DNA of 6,870 bases from a virus (taxonomy: Duplodnaviria; Heunggongvirae; Uroviricota; Caudoviricetes). Of the stretch, positions 1 to 6,870 are shown piece by piece. The translations under genes and the position numbers were made by a program. Position 1 is the first letter of the stretch. Every line of letters starts with the position of its first letter. The DNA is taken from IMG/VR virus record IMGVR_UViG_2681813268_000003, positions 1 through 6,870 of that record. One strand, given 5' to 3'. Under the pieces are notes generated by a model. It was not told where the DNA came from and made no database searches. It saw only the letters and a program-made list of their open reading frames with translations.

Positions 1-62
1 GGGTTACCCCCAAACGAATCGGAAAATCGATACTGGAAAAACTCTAACTCGGTGGCCAGTTT

Positions 63-565
63 TTGTTGACCACTTCAGTTACAAACGAGCGAGTAACAAA
101 AATACGCGAACTGAAACGAAAAGGTAACGCTGCCAGCGTTACACAAACGGATCAAAAAGCGTTACCAGAGGAAGAGGAAGAGGAAGAGGAAGAGGAAGAG
201 GAAGAGGAAGAGGAAGATCTAAATACTGATCTCCCCCTCGCCAAAAACGAGCGTCTAAAAAATTCGAGCCGGAGGCTATTGAGCTGCCCGATTGGTTGCC
301 GGAAACACTCTGGCATGAGTGGGTCCGGTTCAGACAGGCATTGCGAAAACCGATTCGAACGGAGCAGGGCGCTAACGGGGCGATACGGGAACTGGAAAAA
401 TTCCGTCAGCAGGGTTTTACACCTGAGCAGGTGATTCGACACAGCATCGCCAATGAATACCAGGGCCTGTTCGCGCCGAAAGGTGTTCGGCCTGAGACGT
501 TGCTCCGACAGGTTAACACCGTCTCGTTGCCGGACAGTGCGATCCCGCCAGGCTTCAGGGGGTAA
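63..565 (+). pseudogene. DnaT-like primosomal/replication protein, disrupted. The C-terminal domain (about 230..565, frame 2) is intact; the upstream part including the poly-Glu tract is in frame 3, and all three frames have stops before nt 127
   Basis: Frame-2 translation ends ...VNTVSLPDSAIPPGFRG, which matches my recollection of the E. coli DnaT C-terminus (...VNTVSEPDSQIPPGFRG). Gene sits immediately 5' of a DnaC-like gene (stop 563-565, next ATG 572), as in dnaT-dnaC. Frames 3 and 2 are joined by a 1-nt shift at the C5 run 233-237; adding one C gives a continuous ORF 63..565. Only TTG starts are available at 63/66. Confidence 0.5.
168..215 (+). repeat. (GAGGAA)x8 perfect hexanucleotide repeat encoding 16 consecutive Glu in frame 3
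   Basis: Direct reading of the sequence: 48 nt of uninterrupted GAG GAA codons. Confidence 0.95.
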
Positions 566-571
566 CGGACC

Positions 572-1318
572 ATGAAAAATATTGCGACAGGCGGCGTTCT
601 GGAACGCATCCGCCGACTGACCCCGCCACATGTAACCGCCCCATTCAGAACGGTAGCGGAGTGGCGCGAGTGGCAACTTGCTGAAGGCCAGAAACGTAGC
701 GAGGAGATCAACCGCCTGAATCGCCAGTTGCGGGTGGAAAAAATTCTGAATCGCTCAGGCATCCAGCCGTTGCACCGTAAATGCTCGTTTGCGAATTACC
801 AGGTGCAGAACGACGGCCAGCGATACGCGTTAAGCCAGGCGAAATCCATCGCCGATGAACTGATGACCGGGTGTACAAATTTTGCGTTCAGCGGAAAACC
901 TGGTACCGGGAAGAATCACTTAGCGGCAGCTATCGGGAATCGCCTGCTGAAAGACGGTCAGACAGTGATTGTGGTTACCGTGGCTGATGTTATGAGCGCC
1001 CTGCACGCCAGCTATGACGACGGGCAGTCAGGCGAAAAATTTTTGCGGGAGCTGTGCGAAGTGGATCTGCTGGTTCTTGATGAAATTGGCATTCAGCGCG
1101 AGACGAAAAACGAGCAGGTGGTGCTGCACCAGATTGTTGATCGCCGGACAGCGTCGATGCGCAGCGTGGGGATGCTGACAAACCTGAACTATGAGGTGAT
1201 GAAAACATTGCTCGGCGAGCGGGTGATGGATCGCATGGTCATGAACGGCGGGCGCTGGGTGAATTTTAACTGGGAGAGCTGGCGTCCGAATGTTAGCCAT
1301 TCGAGGGTTGTTAAGTAG
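572..1318 (+). CDS. DnaC-like replicative helicase loader (AAA+ ATPase)
   Basis: 248-aa ORF with Walker A FSGKPGTGKNHLAAAIG and Walker B DLLVLDEIG. Sequence closely resembles E. coli DnaC as I recall it (GKPGTGKNHLAAAI..., LLGERVMDRM...). Starts 7 nt after the DnaT-like stop. Confidence 0.9.
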   Translation: MKNIATGGVLERIRRLTPPHVTAPFRTVAEWREWQLAEGQKRSEEINRLNRQLRVEKILNRSGIQPLHRKCSFANYQVQNDGQRYALSQAKSIADELMTGCTNFAFSGKPGTGKNHLAAAIGNRLLKDGQTVIVVTVADVMSALHASYDDGQSGEKFLRELCEVDLLVLDEIGIQRETKNEQVVLHQIVDRRTASMRSVGMLTNLNYEVMKTLLGERVMDRMVMNGGRWVNFNWESWRPNVSHSRVVK

Positions 1319-1332
1319 TTTCAGGAGGATTT

Positions 1333-1755
1333 ATGGCGAAACCTTTTACTCCCGAACAGCGGGAAGAACTGAAGACGCGAATTGTGGAACTCGTGCATCA
1401 GGACGGTCGGGTCACGATTCGGCAGTTGTCAGATGAAACAGGTATCAGTCGTGCGTCTGTCGGTCGCTTATGCATAGAACTGGTCGCAAGTGGTGATGTA
1501 TATAATTCTGGCTACGGCTTATTCCCGTCTGAACAGGCTCGCAAGGACTGGCAAAGCGCCCGCAAAAAACTCTCGAGAGTAAAGGTGAGGAAACCGGTTG
1601 TTGTTGATCCGGACCTTATCTGGTCATTACCTGACGGAGAAATACGCCGCTACGACAGGCGCCTGAATATAATCTGTCGCGAGTGCCGGAAGAGCGAAGC
1701 TATGCAGCGTGTACTGGCTTTCTATCAGGGTAATTTTCAGGAGGCGATACTGTGA
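1333..1755 (+). CDS. Small putative DNA-binding protein with N-terminal winged-helix/HTH-like segment; function unknown
   Basis: 140-aa ORF with strong SD AGGAGG (1323-1328) before ATG 1333. N-terminus (...VTIRQLSDETGISRASVGRL...) looks like an HTH; basic C-terminus with CRECRK. No family confidently recognised. Confidence 0.7.
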   Translation: MAKPFTPEQREELKTRIVELVHQDGRVTIRQLSDETGISRASVGRLCIELVASGDVYNSGYGLFPSEQARKDWQSARKKLSRVKVRKPVVVDPDLIWSLPDGEIRRYDRRLNIICRECRKSEAMQRVLAFYQGNFQEAIL

Positions 1756-1812
1756 ATGAAATTAGCTATCAGGCTTCAATTACCGCTGGCATTCGCATCA
1801 AAGGAGAGGAGC

Positions 1813-2169
1813 ATGGAAATAAAACCAGAAGATGAGTTAAGCAATATTGTTTTATTTCCGGTAAAAGAGGATAACCCTCGTAATCAGGTTAATTTTCTTT
1901 ATGAGCCATCGGAAAGACCATATTGCCATCACGCCTCTGTACGGGTTGACGAAAAAGAGCGTCAGGTCCGCTGTAAAATCTGCGGTGCGGTTGTGGAGCC
2001 GTTTGACTGGATGCTCTCTGTGGCAAAAAGAGAAACCAGACTGGCAGATGATGTAAGGCTATTGCGCCAGGAGGAACAGGAAAGGCGGAGAAATATAGAA
2101 AAGCTGATACAGATTGAGCGTAACGCGAAAGCGCGGATACGCAGGGCGACAAAATCCAGAACTGAATAA
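1813..2169 (+). CDS. Zinc-ribbon-like protein with C-terminal basic coiled-coil; function unknown. Alternative start at ATG 1756
   Basis: ORF 1756..2169; internal ATG 1813 has a strong SD (AAGGAGAGGAG 1801-1811). Cys/His motif YCHH...CKICG followed by a charged helical tail (RLADDVRLLRQEEQERRRNIEKLIQIERNAKARIRR). Confidence 0.65.
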   Translation: MEIKPEDELSNIVLFPVKEDNPRNQVNFLYEPSERPYCHHASVRVDEKERQVRCKICGAVVEPFDWMLSVAKRETRLADDVRLLRQEEQERRRNIEKLIQIERNAKARIRRATKSRTE

Positions 2170-2255
2170 TTAAATTTAGCACTGTTAAAAATTTAATCCT
2201 TAACCGGAGGGATTTCTGCACCCTCAAATCATCAGGAGACCACCCGAAAGGGCGG
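1942..2255 (+). repeat. Copy A of a 314-bp near-exact direct repeat (zinc-ribbon gene 3' half plus downstream intergenic); partner at 4185..4498
   Basis: Base-by-base comparison: identical except 2242 a vs 4485 g. A further 13 bp (1928-1940) match 4166-4178 just before the N gap. Confidence 0.95.
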
Positions 2256-2316
2256 GGAGCAGTCACACATCTGTTTCCGATAGCCCCGTTCTAATGCTAC
2301 ACTCTTTGATATTTTT

Positions 2317-3003
2317 ATGACCCCAATAAACATATTTATGACAGTTGCTGATTTCAAACGGCCCAAATTGGAGCTCCCAAACGGGGCAAACAAACTACTA
2401 CTGCACTCTTGCTGTGCTCCATGTTCCGGTGAGGTGATGGAGGCGCTTCAGGCCTCGGGAATCGACTACACCATCTTTTTCTACAACCCGAACATTCATC
2501 CTCAGAAAGAGTATTTAATTCGTAAGGATGAGAATATTCGCTTTGCTGAACAACACGGCGTGCCGTTTATTGATGCTGATTACGACACAGACAACTGGTT
2601 TGAACGAGCCAAAGGAATGGAATGGGAGCCCGAACGAGGGATCCGTTGCACCATGTGTTTTGACATGCGTTTTGAGCGGACAGCGCTGTACGCCGCTGAA
2701 AATGGTTTCAGTGTGATCAGCAGTTCACTGGGCATTTCACGCTGGAAAAATATGCAGCAGGTTAACGACTGTGGGCGGCGAGCCGTCGCGCATTATCCGG
2801 GCATGGTGTACTGGGATTATAACTGGCGCAAGCAGGGCGGCTCGTCCCGTATGATTGAAATCAGCAAGCGCGAAAAATTCTATCAGCAGGAATATTGTGG
2901 CTGTGTGTATTCTCTGCGCGATACCAATCTACACCGCAAATCTCAGGGACGCCCTCTTATCAAAATTGGTCAACTCCACTACGGTAAAGAAGAGAAGGAG
3001 TGA
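2317..3003 (+). CDS. queH: QueH-like protein (DUF208 family, putative B12-independent epoxyqueuosine reductase)
   Basis: 228-aa ORF with N-proximal [11 protein letters not shown] motif and additional conserved Cys (CTMCFD, EYCGCVY), which I recognise as DUF208/QueH hallmarks. No obvious SD; alternative start ATG 2338. Confidence 0.7.
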
Positions 3004-3024
3004 TTTTATGGGGCACCTTTCTGA

Positions 3025-3054
3025 TTGATTTCATATTGGCGAGGTAAGTAGAAT
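3025..3054 (+). promoter_or_regulatory. Putative sigma70 promoter of hok/mok mRNA copy 1 (TTGATT -18- TAGAAT)
   Basis: -35-like TTGATT 3025-3030 and -10-like TAGAAT 3049-3054; predicted start near 3060, just before the tac-like element. Confidence 0.4.
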
Positions 3055-3057
3055 GAC

Positions 3058-3072
3058 TGCGGGTGCTTGAGG
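3058..3072 (+). promoter_or_regulatory. tac-like 5' element of hok mRNA copy 1 (TGCGGGTGCTTGAGG), complementary to the fbi-like 3' element at 3443..3458
   Basis: 15 bp pair with 3443-3458 (CCTCAACGCACCCGCA) with one bulged C. Same 5'/3' fold-back architecture as described for plasmid R1 hok mRNA. Copy 2 equivalents at 6400-6414 and 6779-6794. Confidence 0.55.
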
Positions 3073-3104
3073 CTATCTGCTTCAGGCATGAACACCAAAA
3101 GGCA

Positions 3105-3182
3105 GATAGAGAAAAGCCCCAGTTAACATTACGCGTCCGGCAAGACGCTTAACATTAATCTGAGGCCAATTTCATGCTTTGC
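3105..3182 (-). ncRNA. Putative Sok-like antisense RNA of hok locus 1 (extent approximate)
   Basis: Inferred by analogy to hok/sok. Minus strand has -35-like TTGCCT (complement of 3212-3217) and weak -10-like TAACCT (complement of 3189-3194) with 17-nt spacing, pointing transcription antisense across the mok start (3174). 3' end not defined. Confidence 0.25.
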
Positions 3183-3386
3183 ACATGTAGGTTAGCCTCT
3201 TACATGCCGAAAGGCAAGGAGAAGCAGGCTATGAAGCAGCAAAAGGCGATGTTAATCGCCCTGATCGTCATCTGTTTAACCGTCATAGTGACGGCACTGG
3301 TAACGAGGAAAGACCTCTGTGAGGTACGAATCCGAACCGGCCAGACGGAGGTCGCTGTCTTCGTAGACTACGAATCCAGGAAGTAA
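3174..3386 (+). CDS. mok: Mok-like regulatory ORF, in frame with and containing hok (70 aa)
   Basis: ATG 3174, same frame as hok. Same in-frame arrangement as I recall for E. coli MokC/HokC. Confidence 0.5.
   Translation: MLCTCRLASYMPKGKEKQAMKQQKAMLIALIVICLTVIVTALVTRKDLCEVRIRTGQTEVAVFVDYESRK
3231..3386 (+). CDS. hok: Hok/Gef-family type I toxin (51 aa, single TM helix)
   Basis: MKQQKAMLIALIVICLTVIVTALVTRKDLCEVRIRTGQTEVAVFVDYESRK is near-identical to recalled HokD/HokC sequences. SD AAGGAG 3215-3220 before ATG 3231. Confidence 0.9.
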   Translation: MKQQKAMLIALIVICLTVIVTALVTRKDLCEVRIRTGQTEVAVFVDYESRK

Positions 3387-3463
3387 GAGTGACCGGGCGG
3401 GGAGCTGATCCCATCCCCGCCCACCTCTGATGTGTCAGGCATCCTCAACGCACCCGCACTTAA

Positions 3464-3506
3464 CCCGCCCATCGCTGTGATCTCTCAGCGTTTCGGCGGG
3501 TTTTTT
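3464..3506 (+). terminator. Rho-independent terminator / 3' end of hok mRNA copy 1
   Basis: Two-tier hairpin: CCCGCC 3464-3469 pairs GGCGGG 3495-3500; inner CGCTG 3473-3477 pairs CAGCG 3486-3490; followed by T6 3501-3506. Confidence 0.7.
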
Positions 3507-3526
3507 GTTGTTTATTTCCGGTGAAT

Positions 3527-3554
3527 TTGATTCGCGCACCTTCGCAGATAGAAT
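3527..3554 (+). promoter_or_regulatory. Putative sigma70 promoter (TTGATT -16- TAGAAT) upstream of the 95-aa ORF
   Basis: TTGATT 3527-3532 and TAGAAT 3549-3554, located just after the hok1 terminator. Confidence 0.4.
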
Positions 3555-3635
3555 CGACTCACTTAAGTAGCGCGCAGGGAGAAGAGGGATGGACCCCGAA
3601 CAGGGGAGAGCTATTTATCTGGAAGGATTCTGAAG

Positions 3636-3923
3636 ATGAAAATCGAAGAATTGCGTGAAATTTTTAGTGAAAATGGCCTCTATGCTGTGCGCGTTGAGAA
3701 TGGAGCGATTGTCAGCCATTGCCGCATTAGATGTTTGCAATCTCAACAAAGGAAGAGCGGTGCTGTGTTATTTTATTTTTGTAATGGACTTCTGACGGAC
3801 GGTTTTATTTTGCGTGAGGACGAATTTGTCACATCATTACGGGTTTTGAAAGAGATTGGTTTTAAGGCTGGTTTTCTGCTTTTGCTGAAGAATAAACTCA
3901 TCTACAATCTTGAGCAGGATTGA
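3636..3923 (+). CDS. Hypothetical protein (95 aa)
   Basis: ORF with SD GGAAGGA 3621-3627, 8 nt before ATG 3636. No recognised motif. Confidence 0.55.
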   Translation: MKIEELREIFSENGLYAVRVENGAIVSHCRIRCLQSQQRKSGAVLFYFCNGLLTDGFILREDEFVTSLRVLKEIGFKAGFLLLLKNKLIYNLEQD

Positions 3924-3961
3924 ACTCCTGCTGTGTAACACCGTGCCACCGGAGAAAGCCG

Positions 3962-4178
3962 ATGGCACATATACAACTGGTCAAACAAACCTCTTCCGGA
4001 TTACTTCTCCCGGCGACGCCGGAGAGTTGCGATTTTCTGCATCAAATCAAAATAGGTGAGTGGATACACGCAGACTTTAAGCGTGTGTGTAACTACGCAT
4101 TCCACAAGCGTTTTTTCAAACTCCTGCAACTGGGTTTCGATTACTGGACTCCGGTCGGTGGGGCGATCACGCCTCTGT
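3962..4178 (+). CDS. Phage nin-region protein, 3'-truncated at the N gap (possibly DUF1367-like, tentative)
   Basis: ATG 3962 preceded by GGAGA 3951-3955. Translation MAHIQLVKQTSSGLLLPATPESCDFLHQIKIGEWIHADFKRVCNYAFHKRFFKLLQLGFDYWTPVGG... runs into the N run at 4179. Family assignment is from memory only. Confidence 0.5.
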
Positions 4179-4184
4179 NNNNNN
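4179..4184. other. Run of 6 N: assembly/scaffold gap of unknown true length
   Basis: Literal nnnnnn in the sequence; flanks correspond to positions 1940 and 1942 of the upstream repeat copy. Confidence 0.95.
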
Positions 4185-4412
4185 CGGGTTGACGAAAAAG
4201 AGCGTCAGGTCCGCTGTAAAATCTGCGGTGCGGTTGTGGAGCCGTTTGACTGGATGCTCTCTGTGGCAAAAAGAGAAACCAGACTGGCAGATGATGTAAG
4301 GCTATTGCGCCAGGAGGAACAGGAAAGGCGGAGAAATATAGAAAAGCTGATACAGATTGAGCGTAACGCGAAAGCGCGGATACGCAGGGCGACAAAATCC
4401 AGAACTGAATAA
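4185..4412 (+). CDS. 5'-truncated second copy of the zinc-ribbon/coiled-coil protein (3' 228 nt identical to 1942..2169)
   Basis: Frame-3 translation from the gap edge (RVDEKERQVRCKICGAVVEPFDWML...ATKSRTE) is identical to the C-terminus of the 1813..2169 product. Confidence 0.5.
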   Translation, partial: RVDEKERQVRCKICGAVVEPFDWMLSVAKRETRLADDVRLLRQEEQERRRNIEKLIQIERNAKARIRRATKSRTE

Positions 4413-4498
4413 TTAAATTTAGCACTGTTAAAAATTTAATCCTTAACCGGAGGGATTTCTGCACCCTCAAATCATCAGGAGACCGCCCGAAAGGGCGG
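4185..4498 (+). repeat. Copy B of the 314-bp direct repeat (partner 1942..2255)
   Basis: See copy A. Ends in a GAAA-loop hairpin (4482-4499) that is perfect here but mismatched in copy A. Confidence 0.95.
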
Positions 4499-4504
4499 TA
4501 ATGA

Positions 4505-4723
4505 ATGGTTACATTATTTAGAAAAAAATATCCGCGAAAGAGTAGAACAACAGAATTCCTGTTTCTCATTCTGTTTATCGTGTTGATGACACCGATATCC
4601 CCGCTAATTTTTGTCTGGATAATCGGAAAAATAATTGAGCCAGTTATTGAATTGTATAACGACGTGGTATGGGCGTCATTCAACACACTGCACAATAAAA
4701 TTAATCCGTATAAGGAAAGCTGA
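4505..4723 (+). CDS. Small hydrophobic (membrane) protein, 72 aa, AT-rich
   Basis: ORF with hydrophobic core FLFLILFIVLMTPISPLIFVWIIGKII. Stop 4721-4723 is 1 nt before the HNH start 4725. Markedly AT-rich compared with its neighbours. Weak SD. Confidence 0.4.
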   Translation: MVTLFRKKYPRKSRTTEFLFLILFIVLMTPISPLIFVWIIGKIIEPVIELYNDVVWASFNTLHNKINPYKES

Positions 4724-4724
4724 T

Positions 4725-5090
4725 ATGGCACTGACGAAAAAACAACGTGCAGAACTGCGCATGAAGTTCGGTGGTCGCTGCGCTTATTGCGGCTGCGAAC
4801 TTGGCGAAAAGTGGCATGCAGACCATGTAAAACCGGTCATTCGTTTTGATGGAAATATGCTTCACCAGGAACGTGACGATATATCCAACATGGTACCAGC
4901 ATGCCACCCATGCAATCTGCACAAGCATTGCAGTAGCCTGGAAGATTATCGACGAATTATCAGTGATGGTCGTCGTGAATTCCTTGCGTCCGGGAAAGGC
5001 AAAGCGCTGGTTCGTATGGGATTGGTTGAAATGAAATCTGACCCGGTTGTGTTCTGGTTTGAAAAATATCAAGAAGGGGCTACGGCATGA
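4725..5090 (+). CDS. HNH endonuclease-domain protein (121 aa)
   Basis: SD TAAGGAAAG before ATG 4725. HNH signature CAYCGCEL...WHADHVKPV...NMVPACHPCNLHKH. The tool ORF from 4635 has no RBS support. Confidence 0.85.
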   Translation: MALTKKQRAELRMKFGGRCAYCGCELGEKWHADHVKPVIRFDGNMLHQERDDISNMVPACHPCNLHKHCSSLEDYRRIISDGRREFLASGKGKALVRMGLVEMKSDPVVFWFEKYQEGATA

Positions 5091-5752
5091 CCACTATTAC
5101 CAAAGAGCGACTGCAATGGCTGGCTAACATTTCTGGCCGCGATGATATTGACGATATAGACGGCGGTGAAATTCGTGAACTGGCGCTTATCGCTCTGGCA
5201 TCACTGGAAGCAGAGCCTGTAGCGGAATGCATTGTTGAAGATGGGGGCATGTGTATTGACGGGTTCGGTGAGTATGTGGGTCACTCGCTGCCTGATGGAA
5301 TGCATGAGCTTTATGCTGCCCCGCGAATGCGACAACCTGATGGATGGAAAGCCGTAGCTGTAGCGTGGAAGGTGACGTTTACTCAAGTTGACCAGGAATC
5401 TAATACGTTCACTGCTATATATTTTGACAAAGCGGAAGTTGAGTGTTGGGTACGACTGCATAAAGCATGTGATTTTCGGGCAGATATAACACCGCTTTAC
5501 GCAGCGCCGGCAGTGCCGGTTGCAGTAAACGACGACATGGCTTACGCATTCCATCACGCACTGTCAGATTCATCGCTTGGCTCTGATGAAATCGAAGAAA
5601 TTAAAACCGGTTTGCGTGCTGCCTTTGCCAACGTCACTATCCAACCAGAGCCGATAGTGCCGGATGAAATCGGGCCAAACGATAGTAATACGTTTGATTA
5701 TGTTGATGGCTGGAACGCCTGCCGCGCTGCCATGCTTAAGGGAGATAAATAA
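5087..5752 (+). CDS. Hypothetical protein (221 aa), acidic N-terminus, two LYAAP-containing segments
   Basis: ATG 5087 overlaps HNH stop (ATGA 5087-5090). Coding-like composition. No recognised family. Confidence 0.7.
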   Translation: MTTITKERLQWLANISGRDDIDDIDGGEIRELALIALASLEAEPVAECIVEDGGMCIDGFGEYVGHSLPDGMHELYAAPRMRQPDGWKAVAVAWKVTFTQVDQESNTFTAIYFDKAEVECWVRLHKACDFRADITPLYAAPAVPVAVNDDMAYAFHHALSDSSLGSDEIEEIKTGLRAAFANVTIQPEPIVPDEIGPNDSNTFDYVDGWNACRAAMLKGDK

Positions 5753-6117
5753 TGATTAATCGAACCAAACTGGAGCACATTCTCGAATATGCCAGGCAGC
5801 AGAAATGTATTGGGCAACTTTGTAAAATTCCACCAGGAGATATGGTTGAAATCGTGGAAATGGCCATGCGTAAGGCTGGCAACTCTCCGGTAGCTCCGGC
5901 TGGCTGGATAAGCTGTAGTGATGCAGTTCCTGCTGAATATTGCGATGTGATTCTTCTCGATGATCTCGGGAATGTATTCCCCGGTTCCTGGGATAAGGTT
6001 TTTTGCCCCACTCGTGGCGGGAATAAGATGGCTTTTGTGGACAAAGACGGCGTTGAAGTAGAGAGCTCAACTCACTGGATGCCGCTACCGGAACCACCGC
6101 AGGAGGTGAATCAATGA
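5752..6117 (+). CDS. DUF551-like phage protein (121 aa)
   Basis: ATG 5752 overlaps previous stop (TAATG). C-terminal ...THWMPLPEPPQE and WISCSDAVPAEY... resemble the DUF551 pattern found in lambdoid nin regions (from memory). Confidence 0.7.
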   Translation: MINRTKLEHILEYARQQKCIGQLCKIPPGDMVEIVEMAMRKAGNSPVAPAGWISCSDAVPAEYCDVILLDDLGNVFPGSWDKVFCPTRGGNKMAFVDKDGVEVESSTHWMPLPEPPQEVNQ

Positions 6118-6197
6118 CCTGGCCTGAGGCATTCACCACGGTAGGAATTGCGATGGCGGTGGCGCTGGTGGTGTATTCGATTTGCCGTTGGGGTTAA
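6114..6197 (+). CDS. Putative 27-aa hydrophobic micropeptide (MTWPEAFTTVGIAMAVALVVYSICRWG)
   Basis: Below the ORF-track length cutoff. ATG 6114 overlaps DUF551 stop (ATGA), strong SD AGGAGG 6101-6106 at 7-nt spacing, stops 7 nt before a strong terminator. Confidence 0.4.
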   Translation: MTWPEAFTTVGIAMAVALVVYSICRWG

Positions 6198-6207
6198 CAA
6201 ACAAAAA

Positions 6208-6233
6208 CCCCGGATTGATGGTCCGGGGTTTTT
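6208..6233 (+). terminator. Rho-independent terminator closing the HNH-containing operon
   Basis: CCCCGGA 6208-6214 pairs TCCGGGG 6222-6228, 7-nt loop, then T5 6229-6233. Confidence 0.75.
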
Positions 6234-6445
6234 GAAGGAAACAAAACAGAAACAGCAATTGCCGTTACCTGTTGTTACCATGGCAAGTAAACGTATCTCA
6301 GGCGAGCGCATTGCGCCGTTCTGACGCAGATAAACTAGCCTGGATAGATGGTGCTGGCAATAAAAAATAGCGTTTTCTTATCGGTGTCGGTAAGATTGCT
6401 GCGGGTGCTTGAGGCTGTCTGCCTCGGGTATGTCACTGTAAGGCA

Positions 6446-6523
6446 GACAGAGAAAAGCCCCAGTTAACATTACGCGTCCTGCAAGACGCTTAACATTAAT
6501 CTGAGGCCCAATCTATGTCTCAC
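6446..6523 (-). ncRNA. Putative Sok-like antisense RNA of hok locus 2 (extent approximate)
   Basis: By analogy only; the same minus-strand hexamers as locus 1 are conserved (complement of AGGCAA and AGGTTA). Confidence 0.2.
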
Positions 6524-6727
6524 AAATGTAGGTTAGCCTCTTACGTGCCGAAAGGCAAGGAGAAGCAGGCTATGAAGCAGCAAAAGGCGATGTTAATCGC
6601 CCTGATCGTCATCTGTTTAACCGTCATTGTGACGGCACTGGTAACGAGGAAAGACCTCTGCGAGGTACGAATCCGAATCGGCCAGACGGAGGTCGCTGTT
6701 TTCGTAGACTACGAATCTAGAGAGTAA
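6515..6727 (+). CDS. mok: Mok-like regulatory ORF, in frame with and containing hok copy 2 (70 aa)
   Basis: ATG 6515, same architecture as locus 1. N-terminus differs (MSHKCRLASYV vs MLCTCRLASYM). Confidence 0.5.
   Translation: MSHKCRLASYVPKGKEKQAMKQQKAMLIALIVICLTVIVTALVTRKDLCEVRIRIGQTEVAVFVDYESRE
6572..6727 (+). CDS. hok: Hok/Gef-family type I toxin, second paralog (51 aa)
   Basis: MKQQKAMLIALIVICLTVIVTALVTRKDLCEVRIRIGQTEVAVFVDYESRE. Differs from copy 1 at T35I and the C-terminal residue. SD AAGGAG before ATG 6572. Confidence 0.9.
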   Translation: MKQQKAMLIALIVICLTVIVTALVTRKDLCEVRIRIGQTEVAVFVDYESRE

Positions 6728-6799
6728 GAGTGACCAGGCGGGAGAGTAATCTCCCGCCACCTTTGATGTGTCAGGCATCCTCAACGCACCCGCACTTAA

Positions 6800-6819
6800 C
6801 CCGTTTCGGCGGTTTTTTT
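6800..6819 (+). terminator. Degenerate terminator of hok copy 2 (T7 tract with minimal stem)
   Basis: Relative to copy 1, about 25 nt of the hairpin are missing; CCG/CGG with a 3-nt loop remains, followed by T7 6813-6819. Confidence 0.3.
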
Positions 6820-6870
6820 GGTAATGACTCCAACTTATTGATAGTGTTTTATGTTCAGATAATGCCCGAT

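Follow-up and report, generated by a model that had tools for sequence, protein, structure and literature searches.

A predicted QueH-type epoxyqueuosine reductase carried as cargo in lambdoid prophages of Escherichia coli

Introduction

The last step in the synthesis of the tRNA modification queuosine (Q) can be carried out by either of two enzymes. Specifically, QueA forms epoxyqueuosine (oQ) on tRNA, and QueG or QueH then reduces the epoxide to Q (PMC9508795). This final step was shown to be cobalamin-dependent in E. coli and Salmonella (Frey et al. 1988, as reported by Payne et al. 2015, PMC4646009), and E. coli yjeS encodes QueG (Payne et al. 2015, PMC4646009). QueH is described as dependent on Fe and not on cobalamin (PMC13443448). 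The upstream Q-pathway genes tgt and queA are likewise present in E. coli (PMC9508795), the organism in which queuosine synthesis was worked out and which is usually described as relying on QueG alone. Here we describe a queH gene that lies in lambdoid prophage DNA of E. coli, within a stretch of 6,870 nucleotides (nt) that we refer to as the window (IMG/VR record IMGVR_UViG_2681813268_000003, positions 1 to 6,870).

The co-occurrence of QueG and QueH in one organism has been discussed for Acinetobacter baylyi. It has also been discussed for Staphylococcus aureus (PMC13443448), and we found no such discussion for E. coli in the literature. Likewise, our literature search returned no mention of carriage of QueH by an E. 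coli prophage or phage, and no homologues of QueA, QueG or QueH were present in the viruses analysed by Hutinet et al. 2019 (PMC6884629).

Results

A QueH-family protein with all of its expected cysteines

The window contains an ATG-initiated open reading frame (ORF) at exactly 2317-3003 on the + strand, encoding 228 amino acids (aa). A preliminary description of this DNA, made from its letters, had called the product QueH (DUF208)-like from an 11-residue motif and a cysteine pattern, and had named a search against PF02677/DUF208 and an alignment to a characterised QueH as ways to check the call, which both analyses bear out. The motif is present, and the PF02677 (QueH/DUF208) profile matches the ORF with E=1.9e-65 and 220.6 bits against a curated cut-off of 23.5 (Pfam), aligning residues 27-201 with profile positions 1-174 of 175, a strong match over the full length of the family. 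The characterised QueH of Thermotoga maritima (PDB 7lc5) aligns with the prophage protein at E=5.3e-22 across residues 27-203, with an identity of only ~31% and with all of the cysteines assigned to the cluster and the metal present.

In the 228-aa numbering, which we use for residues and codons throughout, the seven family cysteines are C32, C33, C36, C111, C114, C194 and C196 (C25, C26, C29, C104, C107, C187 and C189 of a 221-aa protein; see below), and they give the pattern CCxxC/D ... CxxC ... CxC. In an alignment of the query and T. maritima QueH with 56 full-length representatives of 50%-identity clusters (37-74% identical to the query), the columns of this motif are Cys in 47-56 of the 56 diverse members. 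C9, C10, C87, C90, C169 and C171 of T. maritima align to C32, C33, C111, C114, C194 and C196, and its Asp13 aligns to C36. Because this last column is Cys in 54/56 sequences, with one Asp (T. maritima itself) and one Ala, CCAPC, as in the prophage protein, is usual for the family, and it is the crystallised enzyme that departs from it. No protein variant in IMG/VR lacks any of the seven cysteines. The PDB includes C9S and D13N mutants of T. maritima QueH as well as a queuosine complex, an indication that these positions are regarded as functional. We take the division of the cysteines between ligands of the [4Fe-4S] cluster and ligands of the extra iron to be that of Li et al. 2021.

The predicted fold leads to the same family. 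An AlphaFold2 model of the prophage protein, built from 26 sequences, has a predicted local distance difference test score (pLDDT) of 80.5 and a predicted template modelling score (pTM) of 0.81, and the best five matches of a Foldseek search with it against the PDB are all T. maritima QueH (7lc5, 7lc7, 9d86, 9deu and 9dco; target-normalised TM 0.78-0.80, E 2.7e-10 to 2.1e-8). The next matches, TtuA and other proteins of the adenine-nucleotide alpha-hydrolase fold, follow at E ~3e-5, three to five orders behind. Judged by sequence and modelled structure, the prophage ORF has every feature by which a QueH is recognised, and its product is predicted to have the corresponding enzymatic activity.

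Start of the gene and its treatment in phage annotation

The preliminary description placed the gene at 2317-3003. The ORF itself is exact, as is its strand, but the conserved start codon is a different one. ATG-2338 is invariant in 11/11 aligned copies. ATG-2317, in contrast, has changed to ATT in strain A10, and a 1-nt insertion shifts it out of frame in AR_0085. Furthermore, the NCBI Prokaryotic Genome Annotation Pipeline (PGAP) starts the gene at 2338, and chromosomal homologues of other genera begin at the aligned Met. For these reasons the true start of queH is most likely ATG-2338, 21 nt inside the longest ORF, as judged from the conservation of the codon.

A third start codon, Met41, is implied by PHROG 3217, a family labelled "unknown function" that matches the protein at 1.9e-138. 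Its profile begins at residue 41 (window 2437-3000) and does not contain the CCAPC ligand motif. We rejected this start, from which the protein would lack three ligand cysteines; moreover, codons 8-40 show the conservation of coding sequence. A Shine-Dalgarno-like GGTGAGGTG stands directly before the internal ATG at 2437 and probably misleads gene callers; evidently, phage annotations have tended to call a truncated protein that lacks CCAPC, and the copy in phage HannyBb is annotated "hypothetical protein". The N-terminal truncation in PHROG 3217 may explain why virus surveys missed QueH. Together with its label, it exposes a gap in phage annotation.

Purifying selection and kinship with chromosomal QueH

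Among E. coli alleles, for which dS reaches 0.31, the ratio of nonsynonymous to synonymous substitution rates (dN/dS) lies at 0.02-0.09; against Scandinavium queH it is 0.04. Values of dS against Enterobacter and more distant homologues are saturated and thus unusable. The ORF is intact in 91/91 sampled copies (11/11 from genomes or phage and 80/80 from IMG/VR), at 221-222 codons, and the 18 nucleotide alleles found in IMG/VR encode only 5 proteins. By these sequence measures, prophage queH is under strong purifying selection and is maintained for the function of its protein.

The nearest relatives outside Escherichia are chromosomal QueH proteins, those of Scandinavium (92% identical), Kluyvera (91%) and Enterobacter (89-90%), followed at 79-87% by those of Symbiopectobacterium, Pantoea, Erwinia, Serratia, Dickeya, Photorhabdus and Providencia. 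The prophage protein agrees with 25 homologues, mostly from other Enterobacterales, at 117/117 columns that are invariant among them, and at columns conserved in at least 23 of the 25 it differs three times, each time conservatively (D/E, V/I, H/Y). The alignment therefore gives no sign of functional drift away from the housekeeping QueH. Among the loci outside E. coli, only that of Escherichia albertii shares the phage context, with DUF977 upstream and hok downstream; the others have no phage neighbours, and in Enterobacter sp. ECC-175 and Scandinavium queH lies amid ordinary metabolic genes. The ECC-175 gene (89% identical) belongs to a nudJ-rluE-icd-chorismate mutase context, in which the chorismate mutase gene separates it from icd, ~1 kb upstream. 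The icd gene is an attachment site for some lambdoid elements, and one might speculate that this proximity hints at how a phage first met queH.

A candidate promoter shared by prophage and chromosomal copies

Upstream of the start codon, at a distance of 35-43 nt, lies the sequence TGCTACACT, in which a TG (2295-2296) precedes a -10 hexamer TACACT (2298-2303). A weak -35-like TTCCGA is found at 2275-2280, and transcription is predicted to start near 2310. TGnTA(C/T)A(A/C)T is a form of the extended -10 sigma-70 promoter. The element, which was found by comparative alignment only, is kept in 79/80 IMG/VR copies and in 11/11 aligned copies including the divergent A10, even where the flanks differ. 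Furthermore, TGCTACA[C/A]T or a near variant precedes chromosomal queH at a similar distance (within 1-3 nt) in flanks that otherwise cannot be aligned: TGCTACAAT in Scandinavium and Kluyvera, TGCTACACT itself in Enterobacter quasihormaechei and Symbiopectobacterium, and the near variants CGCTACAAT and TGCTACCCT in other Enterobacter. Because the element is common to prophage and chromosomal queH despite unrelated flanks, the gene and its native promoter were probably captured together by a phage.

The folding of the upstream 181 nt is unremarkable (z = -1.39) and thus does not suggest a riboswitch-like leader. An Rfam scan gave no matches besides two sok elements, described below.

Distribution in E. 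coli and in phages

Among 5426 complete E. coli genomes, 995 (18%) carry queH, almost always as a single chromosomal copy; in ~10 of the 995 the match covers less than 80% of the gene. Carriers include enteroaggregative E. coli 042, avian pathogenic E. coli O1, an O25b:H4-ST131 strain, and O157:H7 and O111:H11 strains, and PGAP already names the E. coli copies "epoxyqueuosine reductase QueH". The preliminary description had noted that E. coli-like hosts rely on the B12-dependent QueG, and consistent with this (PMC4646009) queG is present in 5426/5426 of the same genomes; hence, every carrier of queH has both enzymes.

In IMG/VR, 188 viral contigs have close relatives of the gene. In the GenBank phage collection, a nucleotide search found one genuine isolate, HannyBb, that carries queH. 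A tblastn search of GenBank phages returned 25 records, most of which we did not count as carriage, as they look like short unannotated faecal "Bacteriophage sp." fragments or oversized records of what is probably bacterial DNA.

Prophage context and the cargo slot

The window combines segments from two paralogous lambdoid prophages, with a run of six N's (4179-4184) at the junction. Positions 78-4175 match a prophage of E. coli FDAARGOS_944 at 4.29 Mb with 99.1% identity, and positions 4185-6819 match a second prophage of that strain at 5.01 Mb, ~0.7 Mb from the first, with 99.8% identity. In FDAARGOS_944, a queH 100% identical to the window copy lies in a complete lambdoid prophage beside ybhA. 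The order there is integrase, excisionase, recombination genes, cI/cro, ydaT, an O-like gene, ydaV, DUF977, a hypothetical gene and QueH, followed by hokD, DUF1367/1364/1133, four tRNA genes, lysis genes, terminase, and head and tail genes. The prophage setting proposed in the preliminary description is thereby substantiated, with queH between the integrase, cI/cro and replication genes on one side and nin-like, tRNA, lysis and structural genes on the other. The tRNA genes, upstream of the lysis genes, are those for Ile, Arg, Thr and Gly; these lie outside the set that carries Q (Asp, Asn, His, Tyr), so maturation of phage-encoded tRNAs does not account for the presence of queH.

Every inspected locus has the replication module (ydaV/P, DUF1627, DUF977) ahead of queH in the same orientation, and DUF977 is upstream in 65/72 IMG/VR loci. 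The three genes upstream of queH in the window (Table 1) are typical of lambdoid replication regions. The downstream gene varies, being hokD in most loci and other genes in A10. In O157:H7, directly 3' of the queH at Z1768, there are genes for a Dcm methyltransferase and an NgoMIV-family restriction endonuclease; in WCHEC96200, queH is followed by a hypothetical gene and then a Kiwa KwaB-like gene. These varied neighbours, with restriction-modification (R-M) and KwaB-like genes among them, indicate that the queH slot is also a hot spot for defence genes.

Comparison of the two prophages within the window is informative with regard to the limits of this slot. They share a perfect 300-nt repeat (1942-2241 = 4185-4484, 100%) and diverge directly after a GC-rich hairpin, CC(A/G)CCC-GAAA-GGGCGG, whose second copy is at 4483-4498; the copy on the queH side has one stem mismatch, the A at 2242. 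The hairpin may mark a boundary of recombination, or it may process or terminate transcripts of the upstream operon. The prophages are alike again at hok/sok (3099-3398 versus 6440-6739, 93%). Between these points the second prophage (4505-6117) encodes a DUF4014 protein, an HNH endonuclease with weak PtuB-like matches in PADLOC, a 221-aa hypothetical protein and a DUF551 protein. With the same slot, from the zinc-ribbon ORF to hok, holding different cargo, the window contains its own control for cargo exchange.

Table 1. Coordinates of features in the window
Feature	Position	Strand	Evidence or remark
queH coding sequence	2338..3003	+	221 aa plus stop; PF02677, 7lc5, cysteines, start conservation, PGAP start and name, dN/dS, Foldseek
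In-frame 5' extension of the longest ORF, 7 codons	2317..2337	+	probably 5' untranslated region, non-coding
Candidate extended -10 element TGCTACACT	2295..2303	+	conserved across prophage and chromosomal queH; putative promoter function
GC-rich hairpin CCACCC-GAAA-GGGCGG, left edge of variable cargo slot	2240..2255	+	repeat ends, BLAST of both prophages
DnaC-like helicase loader	572-1318		profile searches
DUF977/Ren-like protein	1333-1755		profile searches
Small zinc-ribbon protein	1756-2169		profile searches
hok/sok type I toxin-antitoxin locus	3061..3386	+	context only, outside QueH function; Rfam, Pfam, hokD annotation in FDAARGOS_944

The hok toxin locus that the preliminary description placed next to queH is real: the mok/hok ORF at 3174-3386 matches Pfam HOK_GEF at 9.8e-23, a complete sok/hok RNA element (Rfam RF01794) lies at 3061-3236 with 117 bits, and a sigma-70-like promoter site at 3025-3054 fits the start of the hok mRNA. 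A second hok/sok locus, ~93% identical to the first, is found in the other prophage segment at 6403-6727 (sok, 118 bits). The adjacency is frequent, with hok within 1.5 kb downstream of queH in 63/78 IMG/VR loci, but it is not obligatory. We rejected an obligatory functional link between queH and hok, as queH occurs without hok in A10, at O157:H7 Z1768 and in WCHEC96200; the two are probably co-located in a cargo hot spot and not functionally linked.

Some other aspects of the window deserve mention. The ORFs that span the N's (3920-4192, 4056-4412 and 4141-4731) are artefacts. Positions 1-77 match, in reverse, the end of an IS3-family ISEc52-like element that is apparently inserted in an O-like/YdaU replication gene, the C-terminal part of which is the ORF at 296-565. 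Within this remnant of the YdaU/O-like replication initiator is a perfect (AGAGGA)x8.5 tandem repeat at 167-217, which encodes 16 glutamates in one frame. There is also a length difference of ~20 nt between the window and the reference prophage over 78-4175.

Discussion

It is informative to consider what a second oQ reductase might do in a bacterium that cannot make B12 de novo and imports it. We think it likely that prophage queH encodes a functional, B12-independent oQ reductase and is carried as a moron. The proposed course of events is as follows. A lambdoid temperate phage would have taken queH, and probably the native extended -10 promoter along with it, out of the chromosome of a member of the Enterobacteriaceae, and the gene would since have ridden as a moron in the variable cargo zone that extends from the replication module to the nin/Q module. 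Autonomous transcription would let a lysogen express queH whatever the state of phage repression, and the iron-sulfur, cobalamin-independent product would reduce oQ to Q in the tRNAs for Asp, Asn, His and Tyr, where the base occupies position 34. The lysogen would thus gain a second route for finishing Q that does not require scavenged B12, and Q would be completed with or without the vitamin. Zallot and colleagues reportedly found in 2017 that an E. coli mutant in queG regains the conversion of oQ to Q when given a heterologous queH; this would mean that E. coli has the electron supply that QueH needs. Prophage QueH is probably a backup route beside QueG. The suggestion of the preliminary description that a phage-borne copy could make Q maturation B12-independent gains strength from the purifying selection on the gene and from its conserved candidate promoter. 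We infer that the enzyme would be active in E. coli and its putative promoter active in lysogens, and carriage may bring a fitness benefit.

Several observations weigh against this proposal. Inspection of the sequence reveals no evident Shine-Dalgarno sequence before ATG-2338, a consensus promoter scanner finds no + strand promoter in 2170-2316, and no site resembling an intrinsic terminator was detected in 1700-3700, on either side of queH. Given the lack of a scanner promoter and of a terminator, transcription reading through from the phage early-right operon could be an additional, or the sole, source of queH mRNA. We know of no phenotype that separates oQ from Q in E. coli and would point to a selective advantage. 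Lastly, an NCBIfam scan found no dedicated model that matches the protein; this is not evidence against membership in the QueH family, and it means that the PGAP name must stem from another rule.

The same enzyme might instead serve the phage. In that case queH would be expressed mainly with the delayed-early rightward operon after induction or infection, and rapid completion of Q on host tRNAs would tune the decoding of NAU/NAC codons in the late genes. That queH comes immediately after the replication genes, in the same orientation and with no predicted terminator between, fits this idea, as does its presence in the isolated phage HannyBb. However, the extended -10-like element in common with chromosomal queH argues for autonomous transcription, and the neighbours found in the slot (hok/sok, the R-M system and the KwaB-like gene) are typical of cargo expressed in the lysogen. 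Likewise, tRNA pools turn over slowly relative to a lytic cycle, and no difference in decoding between oQ and Q is known. A role in the service of the phage appears unlikely.

It is also worth considering that the phage copy may have acquired a new function, acting on a 7-deazaguanine in DNA or on some other epoxide, or taking part in defence or counter-defence through the state of the anticodon in conflicts with anticodon nucleases. The slot is rich in genes of conflict (hok/sok, the Dcm and NgoMIV R-M genes, the Kiwa KwaB-like gene and an HNH nuclease), and the use of Q-pathway enzymes by phages to modify DNA has precedent (PMC6884629). Nonetheless, no DpdA/Tgt-like transglycosylase, FolE, QueC, QueD or QueE is annotated on the prophage, in a 40.7-kb stretch of FDAARGOS_944 that extends from the integrase into the baseplate genes, and none was found in the window. 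Furthermore, 0/117 invariant positions have changed, and the purifying selection is as strong as that on housekeeping QueH. A PADLOC search gave no match of QueH to a defence family at E<=0.01, leaving the defence reading unsupported. We regard a change of function as quite improbable.

Least credible of all is that queH is a functionless passenger, brought in by illegitimate recombination and kept through linkage to the hok/sok addiction module; its redundancy with queG in every genome and its link to hok in 63/78 IMG/VR loci would suit such a passenger, but its dN/dS of 0.02-0.09 (with dS up to 0.31), its 91/91 intact ORFs and its persistence without hok in several contexts would not.

Returning to a B12-independent reductase carried as a moron, one can imagine a more far-reaching consequence: that prophage queH is a lysogenic-conversion gene that rewires the host tRNA epitranscriptome, uncoupling the last step of Q synthesis from the supply of B12 and from the BtuB importer. 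We put this forward tentatively, as a possibility that is more doubtful than the reductase role itself. If it were true, lysogens would keep mature Q-tRNA in B12-poor niches, or after loss or down-regulation of btuB under pressure from phages or colicins, and this would be the first temperate phage documented to benefit its host by carrying a tRNA-modification enzyme specific to Q.

As an enzyme, the protein is ordinary and implies no new mechanism, and the likely impact of these observations is moderate. With ~18% of E. coli genomes having a second, B12-independent enzyme, the Q/oQ status under B12 limitation could differ between strains without having been controlled for. In addition, queH adds a tRNA-modification enzyme to the list of phage morons, and the prophage gene offers a clean case of capture together with what appears to be its own promoter.

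Comparison with known systems

What was already known of this gene is its enzyme family and its RefSeq name; what is new is the mobile prophage setting and the native promoter that has apparently been carried along. By profile, pairwise sequence and predicted fold, the prophage protein is of the same family as T. maritima QueH (7lc5, 7lc7, 9deu). It differs in having extensions of ~20 residues at the N-terminus and ~25 residues at the C-terminus beyond the crystallised core, and in being encoded by a prophage and not in a chromosomal housekeeping context. The chromosomal QueH of Enterobacterales is closer still: the protein is near-identical, has the same start and matches the closest relatives (221-222 aa) in length, and both genes are preceded by the TGCTACA[C/A]T element. 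The E. coli copy, in contrast, is phage cargo. QueG catalyzes the same conversion of oQ to Q in tRNA (PMC4646009, PMC9508795) and is co-resident in every carrier genome; however, the two enzymes are not homologous, QueG needs B12, and QueG is core (5426/5426) whereas queH is accessory (995/5426).

Among phage-encoded functions, the 7-deazaguanine sets (FolE, QueC, QueD and QueE with DpdA) are likewise phage-borne enzymes related to the Q pathway (PMC6884629). Those sets make preQ0-derived DNA bases and need DpdA, whereas QueH is specific to the last, tRNA-level step. Similar to the lambdoid morons, queH lies between conserved modules, is variably present in syntenic prophages and is dispensable for phage growth, and it has a candidate autonomous promoter upstream. 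Unlike those morons, it has no detected flanking terminator, and its cargo is a tRNA-modification enzyme and not a virulence, exclusion or defence factor.

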